A stretch of 64,000 nucleotides of DNA from a virus, in IMG/VR virus record IMGVR_UViG_3300014720_000002; one strand, given 5' to 3'. Of this stretch, positions 19,868 to 47,371 are shown in pieces. Made by a program: the position numbers and the translations under genes. The notes under the pieces are model-generated. The model worked only from the letters and a program-made list of their open reading frames with translations, made no database searches and was not told where the DNA came from. The number at the start of each line of letters is the position of its first letter. The first letter of the stretch is position 1.

Positions 19868-21027
19868 TTGTTCAGTTCCCTTCCGGCCGGACGACTTCCT
19901 CCGGCCCATCGACAGGAGTGGAGTCAAAATTAGCCAAGGTCAACGGACGTGCGGCTGTTTTAGACCGGACGCCTGAGTTGGTGGTGCGCGGCCCGTTAAA
20001 CGGCTATGCCAGCTACGGTCTGCTGGCGCACTGGCTGGTGAGCAGTTTTCTTGATCTTGGTGTTGATGCGGTGCTCGTGCCGACCAACGGAACTGTCTTC
20101 GACGAGAAGTTCGACGCGTTCATCCCCGAGCGGGTGAAGCGGGTGACCTCGTTCGGCGATGTTCGGGCGGCGTTCGAGTTGCAGGTCTCGCCGCCTGGCT
20201 GGCCGGTAAGCCACGAACGGGCGGTGGTGATGACCATGCACGAGTCCACTAGACTGACCGGGACGCAGCGGGCAGAGTTGCGCAAGGCCGCTGCGCTGAT
20301 CACCCCTACCAAGTGGAATGCCAACATGTTTCGGCGTGAGCTTGGAAAGCTGCCGGTTAATGTAGTCCCACTTGGGGTGGATCTTTCGGTCTTCCGGCCC
20401 CGGGCACTGCCGGCAGGTCCGGCGTGTGTCTTTGGAACCGCCGGCAGGTTTGTCGGTGCTGGCACACGCAAGAATGTGGCGCAGGTCTTGCGGGTGTTCT
20501 TGCGGGAGTTTGACGGCAATCCAAGAGCGAGGCTGCAGGTGAAGTGTTTTCCGGATTGTCAGGTGGACACGCTTCGACACACCCAGGTGGAGTTTGTCCG
20601 CGAGTTTCTGTCTGGTCCGTCGCTGGCTGATTGGTATGCCCGCCAGCACTGCTTCGTTAGTTCCAGCGCTGGGGAGGGCTGGGGGCTGATGCTGCAGGAG
20701 GCCATGGCGGTCGGTCGTCCGGTGATTACCCCGCAGTTTGGCGGGGTAACGGCTTTCACGTCGCCGGGTTCGTGCGAGACGGTGGACCATGCAGAGGTCG
20801 AAGTGCCGGACGGTGATGAGTATTACGCCGGCTGTCGTGCGGAGGTTTCAGATGATGCGCTGGCGGCAGGCATGCGCCAGATTTACTCCGAGTGGCAGTC
20901 TGGCGCGTTGCGTTGGCGTGGGTGGAAGGCGGCGCAGCAGGCGAGCAAGTTTCCGTGGATGGCGTGCCCGCTGGGCGTGCTGGACGTGTTGTCGATGCAG
21001 GGGTTCCTACCGTCCCGGTCGGCTTGA
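19864..21027 (+). CDS. GT-B fold (GT4-like) glycosyltransferase
   Basis: EGWGLMLQEAMAVGRPVITPQFGG signature. Confidence 0.88.
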   Translation: MIVQFPSGRTTSSGPSTGVESKLAKVNGRAAVLDRTPELVVRGPLNGYASYGLLAHWLVSSFLDLGVDAVLVPTNGTVFDEKFDAFIPERVKRVTSFGDVRAAFELQVSPPGWPVSHERAVVMTMHESTRLTGTQRAELRKAAALITPTKWNANMFRRELGKLPVNVVPLGVDLSVFRPRALPAGPACVFGTAGRFVGAGTRKNVAQVLRVFLREFDGNPRARLQVKCFPDCQVDTLRHTQVEFVREFLSGPSLADWYARQHCFVSSSAGEGWGLMLQEAMAVGRPVITPQFGGVTAFTSPGSCETVDHAEVEVPDGDEYYAGCRAEVSDDALAAGMRQIYSEWQSGALRWRGWKAAQQASKFPWMACPLGVLDVLSMQGFLPSRSA

Positions 21028-21070
21028 AGTTACGCTTGGCCGAGGCGTTGACCTATGGCAGGCTGAACGC

Positions 21071-22135
21071 ATGACCGCACCTCCAGCGCTCGAACCTCCC
21101 GGCGTCAAGCTGAGCGACTGGGACGATTTTGACTCGCATAGAGATGCCATCTACACCCAGGCGCGCGAGGCGATGCTCAAGAAGTTCCCGCAGAGCTACG
21201 GTGGCGTCCGGCTTGAACTCCATGACCTCGATTACGAGGATCCTCCTCGGGCATCATTGGCCGAGCAGAAGCGCGCCATCCTTGAGAACCGGTATCTGCA
21301 TCGCCGGCTGCGCGGCACCTGGCGCATGTTCGATGACAAGACCGGTGACCTGCTGGAAGAGCGGCGCAGCACGGTGATGAAAGTTCCCATGCTGACCGAC
21401 CGAGGAACTTTCATCCATGGCGGCAACGAATACACGACGCTGCACCAGGCTCGCCTGATGCCGGGCGTGTTCACCCGGCGGAAGGCCACCGGCGAACTGG
21501 AGACGCACTTCAACGTGCGGCGCGGCACGGGTTCTTCGTTCAGGGTTCATTTGGAGCCGGAGAGCGGTCTGTTCAAGCTGGACATTGGTCAGTCCAGCTT
21601 GCGGCTTTACTCGTTGCTGAAGGACATCGGCGTGTCTGACGAGGAGTTGGAGAAGCGCTGGGGTCCGGAGTTGCTGCAGACCAACCGTAACAAGTATGAC
21701 GCGCGTGTCTTTGAAAAGGCGTATCAACGTCTGGTGCGGCAGCCAAAAGCCGAGGCCACGCGCGAGGAAAAGGCACAGGCCATACGCGAGGCGATGATGC
21801 GCGCCAGGATGGATCGCCGGGTGGTGGAGCGGACGCTGCCAAACCTGTTCAACCGGAAGGTGGCCGCTGCATGGCAGCAGGGCCGCGACGACGATTTTGA
21901 CCGGGCTGACTACATCATGCTTGCCCGGCTGCTGGACGAGAAGTTTGGGTCGGGCATACCGACGGACTTGACCACATCAGAACTGGTGGAACGCCTTCGG
22001 ACTGAGATGGGTGAGTTGCTGCCGCAGGTGGACGACCGTCTTCTGCGGCAATGGGTAGAAAATCAGAAAAATCATGAAACGACTACTGGCGACGTTGGTG
22101 GTGTTGGGTCTGACGCAGTTCTGTCATGGGTCTGA
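21071..22135 (+). CDS. rpoB: DNA-directed RNA polymerase beta subunit, N-terminal fragment
   Basis: KVPMLTDRGTFIHGGNEYTTLHQARLMPGVF aligns with bacterial [30 protein letters not shown]. Confidence 0.88.
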   Translation: MTAPPALEPPGVKLSDWDDFDSHRDAIYTQAREAMLKKFPQSYGGVRLELHDLDYEDPPRASLAEQKRAILENRYLHRRLRGTWRMFDDKTGDLLEERRSTVMKVPMLTDRGTFIHGGNEYTTLHQARLMPGVFTRRKATGELETHFNVRRGTGSSFRVHLEPESGLFKLDIGQSSLRLYSLLKDIGVSDEELEKRWGPELLQTNRNKYDARVFEKAYQRLVRQPKAEATREEKAQAIREAMMRARMDRRVVERTLPNLFNRKVAAAWQQGRDDDFDRADYIMLARLLDEKFGSGIPTDLTTSELVERLRTEMGELLPQVDDRLLRQWVENQKNHETTTGDVGGVGSDAVLSWV

Positions 22136-23083: not shown

Positions 23084-23761
23084 ATGCCGATAGCCCTCAG
23101 CAAGGTGCAGGCGGCGCTGGAAAAGTCGGCGTTGACTGCGCGTCCGAGAACACATGAGGAGCGGGATGACGATGTTCCTGCGGATGTGGACGCCCTGCTC
23201 GCTTCGACGGAGAAATTGTTGGCTGTAAGCCGCGGGGTGGCGGATGCGGATGAGCGCGACAGTCTTGAGTTTCGACAGGTGCTACGTCCGGCCGATTTGC
23301 TGGCAGAGCGGGTGCATTTGGACGCGGACAAGGTGCTGCGCACAACCATGCGCCGGCTGGCCAAGCAGCGCAGCCTCAAAGCGGTTGGCCCTTCGCACTT
23401 CGACCGCTATGCCACCGGGCTGCTGATCGGGCATGAGTTGTCGGCTCCGCTGGAGGAGATCAATCCGCTGCAGTTGGTCGAGCAGGCCCGGCGCATCACT
23501 CAGATGGGACCTGGCGGCCTGCCGTCGGAGGAATCCATCACCCCTGAGGCGCAGAATCTGCATCCATCGCAGTTTGGATTTTTGTCAACCACGGAAGGCC
23601 CTGAAAGTTCGAGAATTGGTATCGACACCAGGCTGGCCTGGGGCGCCAAGTATGGCAGTGACGGCAAGCTGTATCAGAAGTTTGTGGATCGCAAAGCTGG
23701 CCGAGCACGCTGGGTTTCTTATCCAGAGATCGCCGGCAGAACCATCGGTATTCCAAGATAA
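23084..23761 (+). CDS. rpoB: RNA polymerase beta subunit, middle fragment (fork loop/Rif-pocket region)
   Basis: EEINPLQLVEQARRITQMGPGGL...QNLHPSQFGFLSTTEGPESSRIG matches [23 protein letters not shown]...[23 protein letters not shown]. Confidence 0.92.
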   Translation: MPIALSKVQAALEKSALTARPRTHEERDDDVPADVDALLASTEKLLAVSRGVADADERDSLEFRQVLRPADLLAERVHLDADKVLRTTMRRLAKQRSLKAVGPSHFDRYATGLLIGHELSAPLEEINPLQLVEQARRITQMGPGGLPSEESITPEAQNLHPSQFGFLSTTEGPESSRIGIDTRLAWGAKYGSDGKLYQKFVDRKAGRARWVSYPEIAGRTIGIPR

Positions 23762-26250: not shown

Positions 26251-26501
26251 TGGATCTGTTCATTGATGCCGCCGGCAACATCACGGCGCTGCACTCTGAT
26301 CTCATCCCGCTACCTGAACTTGGTCGCATGACCACGCGCCGGGTGTCCGACATACGGTGGTCGGACCCCCGGCAGGTATGGGAGGTGTTCGGATTGGCAG
26401 AAGGACGGGTTTTGTTCAGTGATCGGGACCGGTCGGTGTGCCTGTCCTGGGAGGTGGAGTATTTCAACGGAAAGATTTTGAATGAAGAAGTTCTCGGCTG
26501 A
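26250..26501 (+). CDS. Small hypothetical protein of the AAA module
   Basis: TGATG-coupled; MDLFIDAAGNITALHSD...WEV...WEVEYFN. Confidence 0.65.
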   Translation: MDLFIDAAGNITALHSDLIPLPELGRMTTRRVSDIRWSDPRQVWEVFGLAEGRVLFSDRDRSVCLSWEVEYFNGKILNEEVLG

Positions 26502-27519
26502 GTTTGTCGGCAGTTACATCCAGTGCGGCAATCCAGGGCTGTTCCTGGTCACGTCGGAGCAGCAGCGGGTGGAGCATGACTTCTTGGCGCTGGTGCGCGG
26601 TAACGTCAAGCTGTCGAAGCACAAGGTGTTCTGTTGGAACATGGCGTCTGGTGTGATCGACCGCAAGGAGTGCAAGCAGGTCTCCGAAGCAGCGGATCCG
26701 CTGGAGGTGCTTCAACTGTTCGTGTCTCCGGATGGACAGACGTTTCCCGCCAAGTCGGCAGTGCTGCTGATGGAGGATCTGCATCTGCACCTGGAGGGCG
26801 GTGTGCCCAACGCCATTCTGATCAGCGCCATCAAGCGCACGCTGCGCATCGCCAAGTCACAGAACAAGACGCTGGTCATGACGGGTTGCCGGTTTGTCCT
26901 GCCGCCTGAGTTGGAGCGTGAACTGGTGATGGTGGATTACGCTCTGCCCGATGCTGTCATGCTGGGGACGGTGCTGGACAATGTGGTGAAGTCCGCCAAC
27001 ACCGCCATCAAGGCTTCCGGTGGGGGTGAGATCAGCTTGGAGCCGACCGCGCGCGAGTCGATTGTCGCCTCGGCGAGCGGCATGACGGTAGCCGAGGCCG
27101 AGAACGCGTTCGCGCTGTCGCTGGTCCGTCACAAGTCGGTGGTCGCCACGGTTGTGGCGGAAGAGAAGGCTTCTGCCGTCCGCAAGAGTGGTGTGCTTGA
27201 ACTCGTTAGCACGCAGCTTTCGCTGAGTGATGTCGGCGGGCTGGAGACCCTCAAGGAGTGGCTGCAGACCAGGCGGCGTGCGCTGACCAAGGAAGCACGA
27301 GACTTTGGCCTGCCGTCCTTGCGGGGCATCCTGCTGCTCGGTCCTCCCGGCACCGGTAAGTCACTGGTGGCCAAGGCCACGGCCGTGTCGTTTGATGTGC
27401 CATTGGTCAAGCTGGACTTCGGGCGTCTGTTCGGCAGTTTGATCGGACAGACGGAGCAGAATCTACGCAACGCTCTCAACACGGTGGAGGCCATTTCGCC
27501 GTGTGTGTTGTGGTGTGAT
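26482..27519 (+). CDS. AAA+ ATPase (Ycf46-like), exon 1
   Basis: DVGGLETLKEWL, Walker A GPPGTGKS; ends in Walker B VLWCD. Confidence 0.9.
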
Positions 27520-28416
27520 TGACATTTGGTCACACCTTAAAACTGTGTGAATTGCTGGAACAGCCTTAGAGCCTTGTTACCCTTTGGGTCGAAAAAACAA
27601 GGATTGGCCAATCAGCAGCTAAGCCTTTTTGCTGGCGCAAGCTGGTGGATCGGAAAGTTCAACGACTAGGGCTACGGCCCGTAGCTCCGAAGACGGAGCG
27701 AAGCGCACAGGTATTTTGCTTGAAAAGGTTTCTCAACTTCTGCAGCCTGACTGCATGTGGTCAAGAAACCATAACTGTTGTGTGGTATGCAGTGGTGTCG
27801 ATTCTCCGCACATGGCCGGTGGCCGGTGTAGTAAATGTTATCAGGCCATCTACAGAAGCCTCCACAAGGAGCAGATGGCTGAGAGCAAGCGTCGCTGGTA
27901 TAAGCGTCACATGACTCCTGAGCTTATGCGCAGCATACGCGAGGAACGTCATTTTGGCTCTAACCGGACGCTGGCTTTGGAGAGAGATGGATTCAAGTGT
28001 CAGCTTTGCGAATGCCGCGATCTTAAAAAGCTCGTTGTGCACCACAAAGATGGACATGGAAGATCTACTGATGCTCCTAATAACGATTTGGATAATCTTC
28101 AGACGCTGTGTCGGAAACATCACATCAAGGTGCATTTAGCAGAGTTGCAACTGGCCAAGAAAGGCTTGCTTGTAATACCTGATAAGATGCGTAAAGGCAG
28201 CTACCGTCAGAGACCCATTTCTGGCTGGTCTAGGTTGTATGCGCACTGCGTCGTTTGTGAGAAATCTGACAGCCCGCACAAGGGAAGAGGTTGGTGTAAC
28301 CGTTGCGCCCAGCGCAAGGATCTACACCATCTCTACGAGCAAAGTCCAAGATATAGTCTGAGCTTCAAGGAAACTTGAAGAGGGTGGCTGGTATCGAGCC
28401 ATCCGAAACAAAACTG
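27520..28416 (+). mobile_element. Group I self-splicing intron (IA2-like) inserted in the AAA ATPase Walker B motif
   Basis: P1 ggtgtgatt/ggtcacacc with U27519-G27529 wobble; P aattgctggaa; Q aatcagcag; R gttcaacgactag; S aagatatagtct; P3 ctgtgtg/cgcacag; P7.1 and P7.2 hairpins; P9 cttcaag-gaaa-cttgaag; terminal G28416. Splicing restores WCD|EIEK. Confidence 0.93.
27755..28378 (+). CDS. Intron-encoded HNH homing endonuclease
   Basis: RDGFKCQLC...VHHKDG...NDLDNLQTLCRKHHIKVH; lies between P3' and P7'; lower GC than flanks. Confidence 0.88.
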   Translation: MWSRNHNCCVVCSGVDSPHMAGGRCSKCYQAIYRSLHKEQMAESKRRWYKRHMTPELMRSIREERHFGSNRTLALERDGFKCQLCECRDLKKLVVHHKDGHGRSTDAPNNDLDNLQTLCRKHHIKVHLAELQLAKKGLLVIPDKMRKGSYRQRPISGWSRLYAHCVVCEKSDSPHKGRGWCNRCAQRKDLHHLYEQSPRYSLSFKET

Positions 28417-28968
28417 GAAATTGAGAAGGGGCTATCCGGCACCAAGTCCGGCGGGGCCTCTGATGGTGGCGTTATGGATCGCGTGTTCGGTGCGTTCCTT
28501 ACCTGGCTCAACGAAAAGACGGTAGATGTTTTCGTGGTCGCCACGGCGAACAAGGCAGCGGAGTTGCCGCCTGAGTTCCTTCGTCCGGGCCGGTTTGACT
28601 CCCTGTTCTTCGTTGATCTTCCGACGGCGTCGGAGCGCGAGGTCATCTGGAAGATCCAGATGGCCAAGTATGGGCGCAAGCTCAAGGGCTTCGACCTCAA
28701 GGAACTGGCGGTCAACACCAGTGGGTTCACCGGCGCCGAGATCGAGGCCATCCTGGTGGAGGGCCTGCACATGGCATTCGCGGCCGAGCGCGATCTCAAG
28801 CAAAACGACCTGCTGGAGGCGCGCAAGCAAATCTCCCCGGTGGCCAAGGTCATGGGCGATCAGCTTGTGCAACTGCGCAACTGGGCCAAGGACCGGACCC
28901 GTCCGGCCGGGCTGGGTTTCGCTGAGACGCCGACGGCAGAACTTGGCGAGCGTGCACTGAGCGTATGA
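28417..28968 (+). CDS. AAA+ ATPase (Ycf46-like), exon 2
   Basis: EIEKGLSG...SDGG...FLTWL...VFVVATAN...LPPEFLRPGRFD; spliced product 529 aa. Confidence 0.9.
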   Translation, partial: EIEKGLSGTKSGGASDGGVMDRVFGAFLTWLNEKTVDVFVVATANKAAELPPEFLRPGRFDSLFFVDLPTASEREVIWKIQMAKYGRKLKGFDLKELAVNTSGFTGAEIEAILVEGLHMAFAAERDLKQNDLLEARKQISPVAKVMGDQLVQLRNWAKDRTRPAGLGFAETPTAELGERALSV

Positions 28969-30366: not shown

Positions 30367-30784
30367 GGGCCTGAATTGGTTTCGACTGCAGATTGTGCGC
30401 CGTGAGTTGCATGCAGTGGATGATCGTTGGCCACGCTAAACTTCGATCAAAAGTATCAGCCAACTCGCAAGAGGACGCTGGTCTGCTCGCCGAAGCGGCT
30501 CGCATCATGGGCAACCCTGATGCCGTGCTCGCCAAGTATGAGCAGGCTGTTCTGGCCTAACCAAAGCCAGCCGTTCGCCGGGTGACACCTGCTGTCCCGG
30601 AACGAACGTCATCAGCAGGTTCAATCAGCAGCCAGGCGACCGGCTGTTGGGTGTGACTGTCAGGCGCAAACCTTGTCGGCCAGTTCTCCTGGTTCGAGTC
30701 GGCAAGTTACTAACCGGGAAAAGCATGTAGAGCTTGCGGTAGTCAGTGTGCAGGACCTCGGTTCAACCCCGAGCAGGTCCACCA
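30367..30784 (+). ncRNA. ssrA: tmRNA (transfer-messenger RNA), 418 nt
   Basis: 5' GGGCCTGAATTGGTTTCGAC pairs with 3' CAGGTCC-ACCA; T-arm ctcggttcaaccccgag; PK1-like gtgg/ccac plus tgatcg/cgatca; tag ORF 30459-30560. Confidence 0.95.
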
Positions 30785-35220: not shown

Positions 35221-35558
35221 AGGAGCATAATCTGGCGGACCTGAGGTCTGCCCTGAAGGCGTCGGGTGTGTCGGCCAGGGATCGCGGCACGGTCTTGGAG
35301 TTCAAGTTCTCCCGGAATTTCGTGAGGCAGTTGGAACTGTTTGCTCCTGGGTGTGGCAGCCGGACCCATGTTCCTGGCACGAATGGCGGACAGATGGAGT
35401 GTGGCGCCTGGCTGACTTGGATGGACGGAACTCGCATCCAGCAGTTCTGTGGTTACTGTGAGTCTCAACTGAATGCACCTGCAGTCGTTTGTTTATCGCA
35501 ATGTCCGGTTTCGCAGCAAGGTAATGGCCGAGATGGCCTGGTGGTTGGACCGGTTTGA
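35217..35558 (+). CDS. Hypothetical protein
   Basis: ATGA-coupled; overlaps the next ORF by 86 nt. Confidence 0.45.
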   Translation: MKEHNLADLRSALKASGVSARDRGTVLEFKFSRNFVRQLELFAPGCGSRTHVPGTNGGQMECGAWLTWMDGTRIQQFCGYCESQLNAPAVVCLSQCPVSQQGNGRDGLVVGPV

Positions 35559-36132
35559 ACTGGGCTGGGCTTATGAGCCCGAAACTTTGGTTGATGGGCC
35601 GGTCTCGGTGACGCCCGACTTCTGGCTTCCCGACATCCAGACGCTGGTGTTTGTGCAGACCCGTGTGCTGCCCAGCGACCACTGGGAGGCCAGCATGCGC
35701 ATGGTGGGGACGCTTGGCCGTCGGACCGTGTTTCTGGAAATGGACCGGCACGTCGTTGGACCGATGGAGGACATCCCCGATCCAGCGCGCCTGGTGACCT
35801 GCCTCGACGGGTTGTTCAAAGTTGAACCAAACACGGACTGCACCTTCGCCGAGCCGGGTCAGGGTTGGTTCTGGCACAGCCGCTTTGCCCAGTCCGTTTC
35901 GCACATCAAGCAGTTGGCCAGCGGCGCGCATGTGCTGCTGATTCGATGCACCGTGTGCGGCGTGGTGCATTGGACGCATCGGGCGGGCGACATGCTCTGT
36001 CCCCGGTGTCAGTTGGGCAATTCCAGCAAACCTGAGCGCTGGCAGAAGCACATCATTCCCGCGCTGCATCTTCGGACGATGGCTGAGGTGCACCGGCTGG
36101 TTGAACAGGCCCGCAGTTTTTCCGGCGCGTGA
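35473..36132 (+). CDS. PD-(D/E)XK nuclease-like protein with C-terminal Cys motifs
   Basis: FRSKVMAEMAWWLD...WAYEPE...TPDFWLP...FVQTR; CTVC and CPRC. Confidence 0.65.
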   Translation: MHLQSFVYRNVRFRSKVMAEMAWWLDRFELGWAYEPETLVDGPVSVTPDFWLPDIQTLVFVQTRVLPSDHWEASMRMVGTLGRRTVFLEMDRHVVGPMEDIPDPARLVTCLDGLFKVEPNTDCTFAEPGQGWFWHSRFAQSVSHIKQLASGAHVLLIRCTVCGVVHWTHRAGDMLCPRCQLGNSSKPERWQKHIIPALHLRTMAEVHRLVEQARSFSGA

Positions 36133-39100
36133 CGCCGGCGTTAGCCGAGCCAGCCGGTGGGAAGTGGTTTGCCCCACCGGCTGGCTTTCAGCGGCTCGAC
36201 AAACCGTCCGAGGTGGTGTGTCATGTGGACATGCCGACTGCAATCCAGACGCCCCGGCGGGCAGTGGTCCGTGGTAGCACGCTGACCGAGGCCGACGATA
36301 CCGACGTAGAGTTTGAACTGGACAGTCCTGATCAGTTCTTCGGCTCCCACATCGGCCTCATCCCATTGCGTTCCGCGGTGGCTGGTCCGCGGCTGTTCTA
36401 CGGTGCACGGTTCTACAACCAGGCTCTTCCTTTGCCGCAGGCTGAAGCTCCGCTCGTGCAGGCGCTGGCCGACAAGGATGAGCAGGGCCGTTCGTTCGAT
36501 GAGATTCTCGGCAAGGCGGCAGGCGCTAGGCTGGCCAAGGCTGACGGCGTGGTTCGGGACGTGACGCCTGACTGGATTGAACTGGAGCTTTCAGACGGCA
36601 AACGTGAGCAGGTCGAGCTTTACAACAAGCTGCCGTTCAACCGCAAGACCAGCCTGACCAATACCCCGGTGGTGAAGCCCGGCGATCAAGTGCGCTCAGG
36701 ACAGGTGCTGGCCAAGTCAAACTTCACGGATGCAGAAGGCCGGCTGGCGATGGGGTTGAACGCGCGCATTGGGCTGGTGCCCTACCTTGGCAAGTCCATG
36801 GATGATGCCGTGGTGGTGAGCGATGCGTTCGCACGCCGGCTTTCCAGCGAGCACCTCTACGGCTACGACCTGGACAACCGCAATGGCATCAAGTTCGGCA
36901 AGGCCCATTATGCCGGCATCTTCCCTGGACGTTTCATCAAGGACCAGTTGGAGAAGCTGGATGATGACGGGGTGGTGCGTCCTGGCATGCTGGTGCAGCC
37001 TGGCGATCCGCTCATCCTGGCTACCCGGCCTCGCGTAGTGTCCAGCACGTCCGCCCAGCTTGGTTTGCTCAGCAAGCACATGAAGAACGCGCGCACCAAT
37101 GCCGCTTTGCTGTGGGATCACGACGAACCAGGGACAGTGACCGATGTGGTCCGCCTGCCCGACGGTTCGGCCAAGGTCAACGTGCAAGTCATTGAGCCTA
37201 CGCGACTTGGCGATAAGATCGTAATGCGATCCGGGCAAAAAGGGATAATTTCCGAGATCCTCCCTGACGACCAGATGCCACGCACGGCTGACGGCCATCC
37301 GTTGGAGGTTCTGCTCAATCCGCTGGGCATCCCCTCGCGGGTGAACAACTCGCTGGTTTATGAGCTTCTGCTCGGCAAGGCGGCACGCAAGAGCGGCAAG
37401 CCGTTCAAGCTGCCGGCGTTCCTGCCGGAAGGTCAGCAGTGGGACAAGATCGTTGAGCAGCATTTGAAGGATGCTGGGCTGACTGACACTGAGGAGGTCT
37501 ATGACCCCAAGTTTGGGCGCAAGCTGGAGCGGCCGGTGACGGTGGGCGATGGTTACGTGCTCAAGCTTCATCACACGTCAGCATCTAAGATTTCTACTCG
37601 CGGACAAGGGAGCTACACTTGTTTTGATGATATTACTGAAGTGTGCACGCGTCGAGGCTGGGTGGCGTGGCCGGATGTAACAGCCGACGATGAGTTCGCG
37701 ACTGCAGATGACGGCAAGCTTGTGTTCAGTAGGGCCAGCCGTATCACAAAAGAGTTTTACTCTGGAGAATTGGTAGGGTTTGAGGGACGGTATTTGGATT
37801 GGCTTGTGACTCCGAACCATAACCTTTTGGTCAAGTTCAGAAAGCCATCTAGTCGATTGCGTATGGAGCGCGCTGATGCGCTGTTCGGTAGGTCGTTCTA
37901 CGTGCCTCAGTTTGGGTTTGCTGAGTTGCATGGTAGAAATCCTCGGCGTTTTGTTTTGTCCGGTCGCGTAATTAGAGACACTCTTGGTAGGGTGTATAAC
38001 ACTCCTGGGTTTGAGTGCGAGTTTGAAGACTTTGCTGATTTTGCGGGATGGTGGTTGTCCGAAGGCGAGGTTCGTTTGACTGAAGGCAGAGTTAAGTTAT
38101 ACCAGTCAGAGAAAGCCAATCCTGCAAAGTTCCAACAGATTGAGTCGCTTTTGAAGCGGCTAGGCGTGGCCTTCAACGCTATCCGAAGGAATGGGGTGGG
38201 TGTAGGATGGCAGTTCGCCAATAAATCATTGGCTTTTTTTCTGGCTAGTGAATTCGGGTCTGGTTCTGTCAATAAGAAGATACCAGAGTTTATGCTTTCG
38301 GCGGGTTTGTCGGCGCGTCGTAGAATGTATTCCAGCATGATGCTAGGCGACGGGACTGCCGATTCATCCGGTATGGATGTGTGCTACAACACCTGCTCCA
38401 AGAGACTGGCTGATGATTTTCAGCGGCTGTGCATTGGGCTTGGGTTTGGGTCAGTGATAAGTTATAGACCGGCTACTACTAGTAGTGCTATTAGAGGCAG
38501 AGTAGTTCATTCTGGACCTATATGGCGTTGTGGTGTCAGCCTTCGTAGGAAGTTTGCCTTGGTCGAGAATTACAGCAATCGACCCACAAGGCATTATCGC
38601 CAGCACTATGAGGGATTTGTTTATTGCGCTACTATTCCTGTAACCGGCTTGTTGCTAGTCCGCAGAAATGGTAAGCCTATGTGGTCTGGTAATTCAAACG
38701 AGCAACCCGCCCACGGCGGCGGCGAAACGGCTCAGGCCAAGCGGTTGTCTGGACTGGAGTCGCGCGCTTTGATCTCGTCGGGGGCCTACAACGTCCTGCG
38801 CGAAGGAGCTACGCTGCGGGGCCAGCGCAACGACGAGTATTGGCGTCAACTGCACATGGGCCTTCAACCCCGGGACCCAGGTCGTCCGTTCATGTTCTCG
38901 AAGTTCCTGGCCATGCTGTCCGGTGCCGGCTATCTGGCGCGCAAGCTGCCCAAGGACCGGTATCGGCTTCAGTTCATGACCGATCGTGATCTGGATGGGT
39001 TGAATCCAACGGAATTGTCCAACGGTGAGATAGTTGACATCGGCACGTTCGAGCCGGTAAAGGGCGGTCTGTTCGATCCGTCCATCACTGGCCGGCAAAG

Positions 39101-39296
39101 CTGGGGTGCCATCAGGCTGCCCCAGCCCATGCCGAATCCGGCAGCCGAGGATGTGATCAGAAAGCTGCTCGGGTTGACACAGAAAGAGTTTCGTTCGGTG
39201 CTGTCCGGCGAGATGGAGTTGCCGGTAGAGACGCTGCAGAGACTGAGACATGAACAACAAGGAGTTGGACGCGGCAGTGCTGGAAGCGGTGGATAA
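36129..39296 (+). CDS. rpoB: RNA polymerase beta C-terminal fragment fused to beta' N-terminal fragment, containing an intein
   Basis: GDKIVMRSGQKG, LNPLGIPSRVN, YVLKLHH, KRLSGLESRAL, then FEPVKGGLFDPSITG...WGAIRLPQP (beta' region). Confidence 0.92.
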   Translation: MTPALAEPAGGKWFAPPAGFQRLDKPSEVVCHVDMPTAIQTPRRAVVRGSTLTEADDTDVEFELDSPDQFFGSHIGLIPLRSAVAGPRLFYGARFYNQALPLPQAEAPLVQALADKDEQGRSFDEILGKAAGARLAKADGVVRDVTPDWIELELSDGKREQVELYNKLPFNRKTSLTNTPVVKPGDQVRSGQVLAKSNFTDAEGRLAMGLNARIGLVPYLGKSMDDAVVVSDAFARRLSSEHLYGYDLDNRNGIKFGKAHYAGIFPGRFIKDQLEKLDDDGVVRPGMLVQPGDPLILATRPRVVSSTSAQLGLLSKHMKNARTNAALLWDHDEPGTVTDVVRLPDGSAKVNVQVIEPTRLGDKIVMRSGQKGIISEILPDDQMPRTADGHPLEVLLNPLGIPSRVNNSLVYELLLGKAARKSGKPFKLPAFLPEGQQWDKIVEQHLKDAGLTDTEEVYDPKFGRKLERPVTVGDGYVLKLHHTSASKISTRGQGSYTCFDDITEVCTRRGWVAWPDVTADDEFATADDGKLVFSRASRITKEFYSGELVGFEGRYLDWLVTPNHNLLVKFRKPSSRLRMERADALFGRSFYVPQFGFAELHGRNPRRFVLSGRVIRDTLGRVYNTPGFECEFEDFADFAGWWLSEGEVRLTEGRVKLYQSEKANPAKFQQIESLLKRLGVAFNAIRRNGVGVGWQFANKSLAFFLASEFGSGSVNKKIPEFMLSAGLSARRRMYSSMMLGDGTADSSGMDVCYNTCSKRLADDFQRLCIGLGFGSVISYRPATTSSAIRGRVVHSGPIWRCGVSLRRKFALVENYSNRPTRHYRQHYEGFVYCATIPVTGLLLVRRNGKPMWSGNSNEQPAHGGGETAQAKRLSGLESRALISSGAYNVLREGATLRGQRNDEYWRQLHMGLQPRDPGRPFMFSKFLAMLSGAGYLARKLPKDRYRLQFMTDRDLDGLNPTELSNGEIVDIGTFEPVKGGLFDPSITGRQSWGAIRLPQPMPNPAAEDVIRKLLGLTQKEFRSVLSGEMELPVETLQRLRHEQQGVGRGSAGSGG
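37620..38693 (+). mobile_element. Intein (358 aa) with LAGLIDADG homing endonuclease
   Basis: Starts CFDDITEV, ends VRRNGKPMWSGN followed by Ser; FAGWWLSEG and MMLGDGT motifs; lower GC than flanks. Confidence 0.93.
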
Positions 39297-39690
39297 CGGC
39301 CACGTTGCCCTGAAGCAGTTGAAGGAAAGGTTGGCGGAGGTGTTTAGGAACGACAAAGACATCGGCAAGCCATCGTTTGGTGGGCGCGTAGATATGAGGA
39401 TCGACGCGCTGGTTCAACGCGACCTGTTGCGTCGATTTGGCAAAGATCGATTCAAGCCCACTGGGCGGCGTAGCTGGGAGGTTCACGTCTATGCTCGCCA
39501 GCATTCGGTCGATCCGATTGCCAAGTGGTTGATTGAAGATCGAACTGAGCGAGAGGCGCGCAAGGAGGCTGAGGCTGACATACGCCGGGAGTATCCTGCC
39601 GCTGAGGATTGGACGTTGAACGAAAGACCATGGAGCTTATGCAGATTACCCCGATCCAAGGTTTCAAAGCCATCACAGCCGTCTCGTTGA
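39250..39690 (+). CDS. Hypothetical protein
   Basis: 146-aa ORF with winged-helix-like N-terminus. Confidence 0.55.
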   Translation: MNNKELDAAVLEAVDNGHVALKQLKERLAEVFRNDKDIGKPSFGGRVDMRIDALVQRDLLRRFGKDRFKPTGRRSWEVHVYARQHSVDPIAKWLIEDRTEREARKEAEADIRREYPAAEDWTLNERPWSLCRLPRSKVSKPSQPSR

Positions 39691-40160
39691 ACGGCTGCAT
39701 CGGCAAGGATGGGCGACTACCGTGGCATTTGCCGGAAGACCTGCAGTGGTTCAAGGAAACCACCCTGGGTGGAACCCTGGTGATGGGCCGCAAGACCTAC
39801 GACTCGGTTGGCTGCCTGCCTGGTCGTGGGCTGGTGGTCGTCAGCCGTTCTGCGGTGGTCGCCAACTGCTGCGCTTTCGATGTTCCGCCTGCGCACTTGA
39901 TCGAGCATGTGCGAACGCTGACCAGCGGAGGGCACCGGCTGTGGTTGTGCGGTGGTGCCCAGACTTATCGGGAGTTCTTGCCGTGGTGTGAGGAGCTTTA
40001 CGTGACACTGGTGCGGCAGATGGTGGATGGCGACGCCTTCTTTCCGCCCGTCAGTGCACGCGAGTTCCGGGTGCAGGAGGTGCTGCGGGACACGCCCGAG
40101 CTTCAGATTGTGAGGATGAGGAACGCAGCTTTGTTTGGTGACCATGGCCTACGAGATTGA
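39630..40160 (+). CDS. folA: Dihydrofolate reductase
   Basis: IGKDGRLPWHLPEDLQWFKETT...VMGRKTYDS...GGAQTY...GDAFFP. Confidence 0.93.
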   Translation: MELMQITPIQGFKAITAVSLNGCIGKDGRLPWHLPEDLQWFKETTLGGTLVMGRKTYDSVGCLPGRGLVVVSRSAVVANCCAFDVPPAHLIEHVRTLTSGGHRLWLCGGAQTYREFLPWCEELYVTLVRQMVDGDAFFPPVSAREFRVQEVLRDTPELQIVRMRNAALFGDHGLRD

Positions 40161-40704: not shown

Positions 40705-41158
40705 GCCGGCGCGGTGGAGCAAGGACCATTGGTCCTGCTTGCTGTTCCTGGAGACGGTCATCGTCGATCATCGCGGCACGTTTTCAGACCGGCTGCGCAT
40801 GAGCATGCGAACTAACCCGGAGACGCATCCGGCGTATGGTTACTGGCTGCACGATGCGCCACGTTGGCGGGCTGAGTGGGGCACTCGTGTGTTCTACAGC
40901 GATGTGGGAACCAACCTGGTTCGCCTGGACGCGCATGATGACTGGGATTGCCTGGAAGACATGGAGTCATCCGGTTTGCTGGTGAACCGTGGTTCTGCCA
41001 TGAATCCGGCGCTGCGTCTGACTGACCGAGGGGTTCGTTTGCACGGCATGGCAAGGACGCATCGTGCCGATGGCAAGAAGTTGGTGGACTTCCGGATTTC
41101 TCCGGAGACGTGGGAAGGTCTGGTGCGAATTTATGATCAAGCAGAACGCGGGGTTTAA
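40673..41158 (+). CDS. Hypothetical phage protein
   Basis: WSKDHWSCLL...HDDWDCLEDM...LTDRG. Confidence 0.6.
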   Translation: MSNCSEPVCIEPARWSKDHWSCLLFLETVIVDHRGTFSDRLRMSMRTNPETHPAYGYWLHDAPRWRAEWGTRVFYSDVGTNLVRLDAHDDWDCLEDMESSGLLVNRGSAMNPALRLTDRGVRLHGMARTHRADGKKLVDFRISPETWEGLVRIYDQAERGV

Positions 41159-42056
41159 GCATAAGCTCTCCAAGGAGGCTGTGGATGCGCTGTTCAAGCC
41201 GTGTCCGGTCTGTGCGGCACGGGCGCACTTGCATGTGCAGCGTGGGCGTCCGCTTGGCTGCCGTTGTGCCGATCAGGGCGATCTTTTGACGGCGCTGTAT
41301 CGGCTGGCAGTGCCGGACTTCGACCGGTTTGAGAAGCTGCCCGGGTATCCGGTCGTCAATCTGGCCACTGGCGACTACTTGATGCGGGCCTGGGTGCGTC
41401 GGGATCAGCGCCTGTCTCCGGACGTGATGGCGGGCGGCGCCTGGATGAACAGCGGGTTCTCGTCCCGCGAGCGCGTAGAGGTCACCGGCACGCTGCTGGA
41501 CTTCGAGGTGTGGTTGCCAGAGTCGATGGTGATGTCGGCGCCGACGCCATCGGAAGTCGAGCCGACTCAGTCAGCCGTGACCATCGTGCCCGAACCTTTG
41601 AATCAGTTGCCAGTAACCATGACGACCAACCCGCAAGGTCAGATTGAAGCAGTTGTCATCGGACACGGCTTATCGCCTGTCCTCGCTGATCAGCTACAGG
41701 AATTGTTCCGCATGCAGCGCCTGCTGAACCAGCGCATCGGCGTCAACACGGACTCGATGACGGAAGAGGAGAAGACCAAGTGGCTCCTGAACTACACCCG
41801 CGCCATGCAGCAGGAGATGGCCGAACTGACCGACAGCGTCCCGTGGAAGTGGTGGGCCAAATACCAGAAGTTCGACGAGCAGAACGCGCGCGTGGAGGTT
41901 GTTGACCTGTTCCACTTCCTCATCAGCATGGCGCAGGTGCTTGGGATGAGCGCGGACGACGTCTTCGCCGTCTACGTAAAGAAGAACGCGGTCAACTTCC
42001 AGCGCCAGGAGTCAGGCTACACGCAGAAGGACGCGAACGATTCCAAGCACATCTGA
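41133..42056 (+). CDS. dut: Dimeric (all-alpha) dUTPase with a long N-terminal extension
   Basis: AMQQEMAELTDSVPWKWW...ARVEVVDLFHFLIS...YVKKNAVNFQRQ. Confidence 0.88.
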   Translation: MIKQNAGFKHKLSKEAVDALFKPCPVCAARAHLHVQRGRPLGCRCADQGDLLTALYRLAVPDFDRFEKLPGYPVVNLATGDYLMRAWVRRDQRLSPDVMAGGAWMNSGFSSRERVEVTGTLLDFEVWLPESMVMSAPTPSEVEPTQSAVTIVPEPLNQLPVTMTTNPQGQIEAVVIGHGLSPVLADQLQELFRMQRLLNQRIGVNTDSMTEEEKTKWLLNYTRAMQQEMAELTDSVPWKWWAKYQKFDEQNARVEVVDLFHFLISMAQVLGMSADDVFAVYVKKNAVNFQRQESGYTQKDANDSKHI

Positions 42057-46434: not shown

Positions 46435-46646
46435 GCAAGAAATCTGGAAAGAGACGGCGGCTGACGGACAAGCAGTATGCCGCCTCTGGCGGTTCCATCT
46501 GCCCGTCATGCCGGACGGAGAACCAGCTTACGGCCGGCAGGCATGAGGCTGATGGCGATCGGATTGAGTTCGAGGTGTGCTGTGAAAAGTGCGGCTTCGA
46601 CTTCTTCGACATCTACCAACTGGTTGGCTACAGGAAGGCGGAATGA
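46431..46646 (+). CDS. Zn-ribbon protein
   Basis: CPSC...CEKC. Confidence 0.7.
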   Translation: MSKKSGKRRRLTDKQYAASGGSICPSCRTENQLTAGRHEADGDRIEFEVCCEKCGFDFFDIYQLVGYRKAE

Positions 46647-47371
46647 AGCGCGCAGCATTTACACCCGACCAAGTCGCCCGGCTGATTGACAAGCCTGGCC
46701 GACGCAAGAACAAGCTGGAGGCGGTGTATCGGCTCAAGCTGTCGGACGAGGACTACCGGGAGGAGTTGGAGGCCGAGATTTATCGGGATCCGCTGGCCCG
46801 AGGCTTGGCGTTTGAGCAGGAGATTGCTGCGCACTTCCCCGCTGACCGTGGTGCCGAGGTGCCTGATGAGGGCGCCTGGGTGCTGGTGAAGCACGCGCCC
46901 AGAGTCGGCTTTCCGACGGGGAAATCGTTCCAACCTCCGCCACTCTCGATCTGGTTTGCCTTGGCGGAGTGGCGACCGTCAGCACGGATGCGCGGAACCG
47001 CCTTCCGGCATCTGGCCCGCATCCTGACCCCGGAAGGGGAGATGTGCCTGGAGCCGCACGAGTATGTGGTGTTCAAGAGTGGTCTGAGCAATCTGCTTGG
47101 CGTTGACGACGACAATCAGGTGCGGATCCACTATCTGAGCGGCGATGCCGCCATCGATGAGGACAAGCTTTTCTATCTTCAGTCGCGTGGCATTCCCCGC
47201 AGCCGTGCCGTGCTGATGCTGGTGGATCATGTGCGCAACCAGAACTGGTGCTGGTTTTCGCTGCCCATCGAGTATGCCCAGATGTTTGGGTTTGATCGGG
47301 CTCCGCGTGGTATTGCTGAGCGTCGCCCGGCTGAGCTTGCCCCAGAAGAGGAGGAACTGACACATGCCTGA
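46643..47371 (+). CDS. Hypothetical protein containing a SufB/SufD C-terminal-like segment
   Basis: AAIDEDKLFYLQSRGIPRSRAVLMLV at 47138-47233. Confidence 0.65.
   Translation: MKRAAFTPDQVARLIDKPGRRKNKLEAVYRLKLSDEDYREELEAEIYRDPLARGLAFEQEIAAHFPADRGAEVPDEGAWVLVKHAPRVGFPTGKSFQPPPLSIWFALAEWRPSARMRGTAFRHLARILTPEGEMCLEPHEYVVFKSGLSNLLGVDDDNQVRIHYLSGDAAIDEDKLFYLQSRGIPRSRAVLMLVDHVRNQNWCWFSLPIEYAQMFGFDRAPRGIAERRPAELAPEEEELTHA

Follow-up and report, generated by a model that had tools for sequence, protein, structure and literature searches.

Organization of the polymerase genes

We analysed a 64,000-nucleotide stretch of viral DNA (IMG/VR record IMGVR_UViG_3300014720_000002; the whole stretch is hereafter called the window), which is phage-like with a G+C content of 60.6% and encodes parts of an RNA polymerase (RNAP). 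The open reading frame (ORF) 36129-39296 on the plus strand yields a 1055-aa product that represents the C-terminal half of an RpoB-like (beta) subunit. Rpb2 domain 6 was identified at residues 137-497 (Pfam PF00562, E 9e-52, 176.8 bits compared to a cut-off of 23.4), and the translation contains the GDK..R.G.KG loop of the beta catalytic barrel as the motif GDKIVMRSGQKG. A preliminary description of nucleotides 38850-39296 had proposed that the C-terminus of beta is fused here to the N-terminus of beta', and that the latter lacks its zinc-binding domain (ZBD). The polymerase parts recognized in the window are the following:

20789-22135, + strand: RNAP beta N-terminal piece 1, collinear with residues 19-288 of gp206 of Salmonella phage Arash (tblastn with gp206, E 1.9e-18)
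23084-23761, + strand: RNAP beta N-terminal piece 2, corresponding to gp206 residues 270-468 and containing Rpb2 domain 3 (tblastn E 6.9e-24; Pfam RNA_pol_Rpb2_3, E 2e-8)
36129-37619, + strand: N-extein of the beta C-half gene with the catalytic double-psi barrel and flap region (Pfam RNA_pol_Rpb2_6, E 9e-52; tblastn to gp206 492-925, E 3e-65)
37620-38693, + strand: LAGLIDADG intein of 358 aa, first residue Cys, last residues SGN, Ser at position +1 (Pfam LAGLIDADG_3; intein-less junction in the relative P0004)
38694-38948, + strand: C-extein, beta C-terminal clamp region, approximately E. coli RpoB 1256-1342 (family hidden Markov model (HMM); Foldseek)
38940-39095, + strand: beta' N-terminal homologue, part 1, approximately E. 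coli RpoC 13-64, ending in GGLFDPSITGR (hhalign; family HMM; hairpin in AlphaFold2 (AF2) models)
39095/39096, + strand: point at which the 35-residue Cys4 ZBD (E. coli RpoC 65-99) is absent (hhalign gap; no conserved Cys; 0/149 relatives)
39096-39230, + strand: beta' N-terminal homologue, part 2, approximately E. coli RpoC 100-156 (hhalign; VIA-align; contacts predicted to the pre-lid strand)
39231-39296, + strand: weakly conserved C-terminal extension and TAA stop (most homologues stop at about ELPxHLR; dN/dS, the ratio of nonsynonymous to synonymous substitution rates, 0.38)

Translation of 36129-39296 reproduced the strings quoted in the preliminary description in the order given there: PFMFSKFLAMLSGAG (nt 38886-38930), YLARKLPKDRY and RLQFMTDRDL (from 38964), with the TAA stop at 39294-39296. 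The last helix of beta is formed by PFMFSKFLAMLSGAG, and the tail begins after this helix in the same frame, with the beta/beta' junction located at approximately 38940-38963 without any linker or stop codon. In RNAP, the beta C-terminus and the beta' N-terminus lie side by side in the clamp, which makes such direct joining possible.

The gene is interrupted by an intein at residues 498-855, inserted directly after GQGSYT, which starts with Cys 498, ends with SGN at residue 855, is followed by Ser 856 and contains a homing-endonuclease domain (PF14528). Its penultimate residue is Gly rather than the usual His. In an intein-less syntenic relative (locus L016, protein P0004, 90% identical), the sequence GSYT|SNEQPAHGGG exactly spans the predicted splice junction. 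Judged by these sequence features, 37620-38693 is a LAGLIDADG-class intein. As the intein sits directly upstream, the feature 38850-39296 lies wholly within the C-extein (38694-39293). Inteins at this site and at other RNAP sites occur in many members of this phage RNAP family.

A beta' N-terminal block without zinc ribbon

The identity of the tail was addressed by profile alignment. A family HMM of 121 C-exteins matched E. coli RpoB 1256-1323 with its positions 3-68 and E. coli RpoC 16-63 with its positions 86-133. When the tail family was compared with E. coli RpoC 1-260 using hhalign, residues 13-156 were aligned (E 4e-4) with one gap of 35 residues; WGAIRLPQP of the tail is the equivalent of RMGHIELASP and is followed by two helices. 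According to these alignments, the beta C-terminal clamp segment is collinear with E. coli RpoB 1256-1342 and the tail homologous and collinear to beta' region A (E. coli residues 13-156), a resemblance that is beyond chance.

Relatives with longer chains gave a second line of evidence. A tblastn search of GenBank phages with the C-extein retrieved four records, Salmonella phage Arash and three Vibrio phages, with ~32% identity, E ~1e-16 and 86-87% query coverage; the whole gene had no match to GenBank phages by megablast. In Arash, the tail aligns to residues 926-1104 of gp206 (tblastn E 1.6e-18), a 1525-aa protein in which a complete beta is followed by the matching segment, the beta' lid motif PVIPPVMRP and the AADYDGD catalytic loop. 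Pfam detected Rpb2_6, Rpb1_2 (E 6e-16) and Rpb1_1 on gp206, the last one at residues 1022-1260 (E 6.5e-7, under the gathering score, covering profile positions 11-261), and the N-terminal edge of this Rpb1_1 match coincides with the start of the window's tail. Likewise, the metagenomic proteins P0111, P0117, P0183, P0218, P0265 and P0271 carry both PF00562 and PF00623 on one chain. Because the same segment runs on into the beta' catalytic barrel in these fused relatives, we assign the tail to beta'. Together, the HMM and hhalign alignments and the continuity in fused homologues support a covalent connection between the beta C-terminus and a true beta' N-terminal homologue, as the preliminary description had proposed.

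AF2 models were consistent with this assignment (mean predicted local distance difference test (pLDDT) score 81.5 for the C-extein and 87.8 for aa 915-1030), with one hairpin made up of the terminal strand of beta and the initial strand of beta'. The model of aa 915-1030 was compared with 48,161 representatives of the PDB at Z >= 2. Only 17 chains reached this threshold, seven of them being RNAP clamps or largest-subunit N-termini: the archaeal RNAP clamp 3qqc_A (Z 3.9, root-mean-square deviation (rmsd) 3.6 Å, 108 aligned residues), residues 0-134 of Mycobacterium tuberculosis beta' (6edt_D; Z 3.0, rmsd 4.5 Å, 94 aligned), residues 3-121 of the non-virion RNAP (nvRNAP) of phage AR9 (7s00_d; Z 2.3, rmsd 4.1 Å, 83 aligned), two Pol I largest subunits, RPB1 of African swine fever virus and a plastid beta'. 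The second part of the tail was aligned by VIA-align to M. tuberculosis beta' residues 0-134 and the archaeal clamp. Foldseek searches of the PDB with both models returned no match at E <= 0.001; most of the top rows were RNAP beta, beta' or Pol I largest subunits, and the top matches for the beta C-terminal part were bacterial beta chains with weak E-values. The structural support thus derives from the enrichment of RNAP chains and the matching residue ranges and not from single scores. The tail therefore aligned to beta' by HMM as well as by structure.

The single hhalign gap covers exactly RpoC 65-99, i.e., the Cys4 zinc ribbon (E. coli C70, C72, C85 and C88), and places the deletion point between aa 989 and 990 (nt 39095|39096). 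The window's tail contains no Cys, none is conserved in the alignment of homologues, and none of 149 representative relatives carries two CxxC motifs in the tail segment. This indicates that the loss is a family trait: the absence of the ZBD, which the preliminary description had noticed for this one gene, is an old trait of the whole phage RNAP family and not a local deletion. The structure paper on the phiKZ nvRNAP describes the ZBD as otherwise universal, yet also absent from the AR9 nvRNAP (PMC7618050).

A phmmer search of 1.84 billion representatives with the 115-aa tail retrieved 728 clusters (counted at 50% identity) at E <= 0.001, and the position of the tail, like the CxxC motifs above, was evaluated for the best 149 of these. 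In 85/149 the tail is internal, i.e., the proteins are fused forms of up to 3038 aa with inteins; in 31/149 it is at the C-terminal end as in the window, and in only 3/149 at the N-terminus as in an orthodox beta' (e.g., P0324). Another 19/149 are proteins under 350 aa, mostly likely fragments, and 11/149 have the tail in other positions. Giant proteins with an internal tail include P0271 (3038 aa), P0266 (2907 aa) and P0235 (2542 aa); according to Pfam, P0271 combines beta and beta' barrels and inteins on one chain. The architecture recurs in > 100 independent metagenomic proteins, and we therefore exclude an assembly or sequencing artefact, which the preliminary description had kept in mind. 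Rather than being private to the phage in the window, the feature is characteristic of a large phage RNAP family, and full fusions are frequent among its members. Comparison with the syntenic relative L016 (P0004) gave dN/dS values of 0.069 for the tail and 0.038 for the beta part, with relaxed selection limited to the last ~20 residues (0.38). The tail is under strong purifying selection.

The remainder of beta' and the origin of the shifted boundary

The window gene stops about 95-115 residues into beta', i.e., the boundary between the subunits is shifted and not removed. Approximately 118 of the 121 closest homologues stop within ~20 residues of the tail end, most of them at about ELPxHLR, and P0111, P0117 and Arash alone continue. 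The beta' core was not found in the 64-kb window by tblastn with Arash gp206, and the window holds no beta' C-half either. In a 200-kb relative that is 98% complete (G001), the same truncated gene is located at 79.3-81.2 kb, the beta' core ~60 kb away at 138.8-142.0 kb (a 1044-aa frame with an intein interruption) and the beta' C-half ~80 kb away at 159.9-162.8 kb. No GGLFD block is present in the stand-alone beta' core proteins, of which the shortest (P0153) begins 70 aa before the lid, and the distance between GGLFD and the lid is constant at ~120 aa in compact fused forms. This suggests that the tail and the beta' core are complementary pieces.

As partner for the window tail in a complex model, we used residues 585-959 of the beta' core from the closest relative (P0150), whose gene shares a contig with that of P0004. 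The ipSAE interface score was 0.64 versus 0.00 for the best control, a mark reached by 58/80 solved complexes and 2/110 mismatched pairs, although these counts are rough and used the author's own alignments. At least 76% of the contacts agreed between docking runs, the pLDDT of the partner was at least 71, and the closest predicted contacts were between WGAIRLPQP... and the strand before the beta' lid. The high score may reflect likeness to known RNAPs, because the gene is split and complexes of this family have been solved. Nevertheless, docking of the tail on the beta' core, which would complete the clamp in trans, is the most likely reading of these models.

Considering all of the above, it is highly probable that the window encodes a phage RNAP subunit composed of the C-terminal half of beta and the ZBD-less first block of beta', with the rest of beta' supplied by other genes. 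In this assembly, the beta C-terminal half would continue covalently into a segment that corresponds to E. coli beta' 13-156, spanning the zipper to region A and devoid of the Cys4 ribbon. The clamp coiled coil, the lid and the catalytic NADFDGD barrel would come from a distant gene starting where the tail stops, and the beta' C-half from yet another gene. The tail would pack on the beta' core protein at the strand preceding the lid, and this docking would link the beta and beta' modules to each other. Split and fused phage RNAPs are already known, and the shifted-boundary polymerase represents a conserved and functional variant of these and not a new type of system.

Several observations weigh against this assembly. 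The C-extein and the tail alone had no match in a Pfam scan at E up to 10, a phmmer search of PDB sequences with the C-extein returned just one chance ribosomal match, and the Rpb1_1 match on Arash gp206 scores under the Pfam gathering score. The structural Z-scores (<= 4.2) and Foldseek E-values (> 0.1) are each weak alone, complementarity was seen in relatives only (G001 and the contig carrying P0004 and P0150), and in a FastTree phylogeny whose only root is the long Arash branch, P0111 and P0117, which are fused, group within the split clade. A tail that lacks direct Pfam or PDB sequence matches, and whose last two helices weakly resemble XRE-type helix-turn-helix proteins (Z ~3.3), could also be a lineage-specific extension of beta, e.g., a small helix-turn-helix DNA-binding module resembling beta' by chance. 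We regard this as very improbable: such an extension would not be expected to be collinear with beta' 13-156 except for one ZBD-sized gap, to continue into true beta' in fused homologues, to enrich RNAP largest-subunit N-termini among its few structural matches, or to be missing as a block from stand-alone beta' cores. It is even harder to believe that the early stop stems from an artefact or marks a pseudogene, with a fused beta-beta' gene cut by frameshift, misassembly or recent decay. ORF 39250-39690 indeed overlaps the gene end by 47 nt in another frame, but this downstream ORF is not beta'-like. Moreover, ~118/121 independent homologues from different samples and the syntenic closest relative share the same end point, the tail is under purifying selection, and the beta' core is an intact gene elsewhere in relatives.

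The direction of the change is less clear. The split point is located just after an ELP..LR motif, where the fused forms have linkers of ~40 aa (Arash) to 170-500 aa (P0111, P0117 and P0218). Most likely, the architecture originated by fission of a fused beta-beta' gene. In this scenario, an Arash-like gene would have been split at the variable, insertion-prone linker just after the tail block. Fission is favoured because fused forms dominate the wider family and include its most distant members. As P0111/P0117 are nested in the split clade, at least one re-fusion or repeated fission has to be assumed in addition. The opposite polarity, with the shifted boundary as the primitive state, a polymerase composed of numerous small parts and later gene fusions leading to the giant single chains and to Arash, appears unlikely but is not without arguments. 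Of the 121 closest homologues, only P0111 and P0117 are fused, and they lie deep in the split clade, making at least one fusion or re-fusion probable; their linkers hold an HRPENF...GANDWE domain that is N-terminal in stand-alone beta' core proteins; and multi-piece ancestors were proposed for phage RNAPs by Iyer et al. (PMC7824862). This contrasts with the majority of fused forms among the diverse representatives (85/149, including the most distant relatives Arash and the Vibrio phages), the rarity of orthodox beta' N-termini (3/149) and the constant tail-to-lid distance of ~120 aa in compact fused forms.

At the split point, the stand-alone beta' core proteins carry diverse N-terminal additions. 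P0150, on the contig of L016, has an inorganic pyrophosphatase (InPase, E 1e-40) and a HAD/PNKP-like domain; such a linkage of a pyrophosphatase to an RNAP subunit is uncommon. P0124 (G001, 138826-141957) has a HAD-like segment and two CxxC..CxxC ribbons, while P0161 has a NUDIX domain and P0151 a match to the 2H-phosphoesterase family (the latter from precomputed annotation only). P0177 (622 aa, on a 4-kb contig) is a beta' protein that starts inside the last beta helix (MPDTPMVFNKFKTLLQGAG...) and continues with the tail and the beta' core; it may point to a third split site, located one helix further upstream, or result from wrong gene calling.

Relation to known polymerases, implications and genomic neighbourhood

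Natural full-length rpoB-rpoC fusions that retain the ZBD occur in Helicobacter and Wolbachia. The parallel that the preliminary description drew to them holds for the direct joining of beta and beta', but not for a full fusion: the window's chain contains only the first conserved beta' block without ZBD, whereas the fusions of the Helicobacter, Wolbachia and Arash type extend to the NADFDGD barrel, and the window ORF ends at 39296. The best structural match of the tail, the recombinant archaeal RNAP clamp 3qqc chain A (Z 3.9-4.2, weak, 14% identity), is an engineered single chain of clamp segments from different subunits, zinc sites included, and can be seen as an artificial counterpart of the natural chimera in the window.

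The window's polymerase belongs to the same RNAP family as gp206/gp216 of Salmonella phage Arash, which form a virion-associated RNAP (PMC10585845), and as those of Vibrio phages D69, D181 and D148. The Arash junction resembles that of the window in having no linker, no ZBD and a GGLFD block (32% identity over the C-extein). However, Arash encodes the whole beta and beta' up to the catalytic barrel in one 1525-aa chain, while in the window beta is distributed over three genes. In the record and the consulted passages of the paper, gp206 is labelled only 'beta subunit' and a fusion is not mentioned (PMC10585845); the annotation of the family could thus be corrected. The RNAPs of jumbo phages of the phiKZ/AR9 type are similar in that the phage-encoded beta and beta' are also divided among several genes. 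For the phiKZ/AR9 type, no alpha or omega homologues were reported (PMC7598289, PMC7824862, PMC7618050). The AR9 nvRNAP shares the absence of the ZBD (PMC7618050), and its beta' N-terminal piece was among the structural matches to the tail. In contrast to the window, however, the phiKZ/AR9 splits are located after the beta' barrel and within beta, and a subunit combining a beta C-terminus with a beta' N-terminus was not described (PMC7598289, PMC7824862, PMC7618050). The mReC (multisubunit-RNAP-encoding Caudovirales) are likewise large metagenomic tailed phages, and profiles of bacterial beta and beta' recognise their RNAP; neither fusion nor shifted boundaries nor the ZBD are addressed in the paper (PMC7481178). 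In the literature searched, we found no description of a phage beta-beta' fusion or of a shifted boundary.

The preliminary description had also considered that a ZBD or a sigma-like factor might be encoded separately. No trans-acting ZBD gene was found. Zinc ribbons occur at the N-termini of some stand-alone beta' core proteins but are not universal. The ORF directly upstream (35473-36132) was rejected as a source of a trans-acting ZBD, as its two C-terminal CxxC pairs give only weak rubredoxin-like matches, its N-terminal part has no assigned function, it is absent from the related locus L003, and nothing ties it to beta'. This ORF of 219 aa overlaps the beta C-half gene by 4 nt; a gene of equal length (219 aa) is located at the syntenic position in L016. 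It is possibly a mobile nuclease.

The sigma-like gene, in turn, was detected in relatives and not in the window: a homologue of Arash gp10 was found in G001 (E 1.6e-9), whereas tblastn with gp10 gave no match in the window. A search of G001 with Pfam Sigma70_r2 and r4 yielded nothing above cut-off, although gp10 itself matches there. The sigma-like gp10 of Arash was found in virion preparations (PMC10585845). With gp10 conserved between Arash and the window's relatives, this phage RNAP family appears to use a sigma-like factor, while the phiKZ/AR9 phages were reported to be without sigma homologues. Changes in promoter recognition and termination, which the preliminary description expected from the ZBD-less clamp, are plausible by analogy with the role of the ZBD in bacteria.

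The free N-terminus of the beta' core has repeatedly gained nucleotide- or RNA-end-processing enzymes, and large inserts are found at the same spot in fused forms. One might speculate that the ZBD-less junction and the break, instead of reflecting neutral gene fragmentation, form an adaptive docking point on the clamp surface, coupling transcription to pyrophosphate removal or 5'-end processing. We consider this quite unlikely. If the added domains were placed near the product paths, transcription could be coupled to the removal of pyrophosphate or to the 5'-end processing of the polymerase's own transcripts; if true, the arrangement would parallel, in a bacterial virus, the capping or processing enzymes that are tethered to polymerases.

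Cellular RNAPs have very stable subunit boundaries; exceptions known so far are the splits in cyanobacteria/plastids and archaea, the fusion in Helicobacter and Wolbachia, and the fragmented enzymes of the phiKZ type. The window adds a case in which the boundary has moved into beta', giving a chimeric beta + beta'(N) subunit. With fused, orthodox and shifted states in one family, nature has provided an experiment on clamp assembly and on the value of a covalent beta-beta' link. The family-wide absence of the ZBD, together with AR9, shows that a 'universal' element is dispensable, and the role of the ZBD in spacer contacts, RNA exit and termination can be addressed in this family. Bench testing is feasible, as one member, Arash, has been cultured and contains large amounts of the polymerase in its virions.

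Downstream of the beta C-half gene, the overlapping ORF 39250-39690 encodes a 146-aa protein of no assigned function. It is followed by genes for a dihydrofolate reductase (39609-40160, E 1e-38) and a dUTPase_2/MazG-like pyrophosphohydrolase (41064-42056), which are arranged in the same order in the closest relative. Further upstream, a group I intron (27493-28380; Rfam RF00028, 67 bits) separates the halves of an AAA ATPase gene, with Pfam AAA positions 1-64 at the end of ORF 26482-27522 and positions 74-130 in ORF 28375-28968. The window also contains a full-length phage-encoded tmRNA at 30367-30784 (Rfam RF00023, 104 bits) and a 260-aa ORF (46589-47371) with a short SufBD-core match that covers Pfam positions 204-230 only (27.3 bits).

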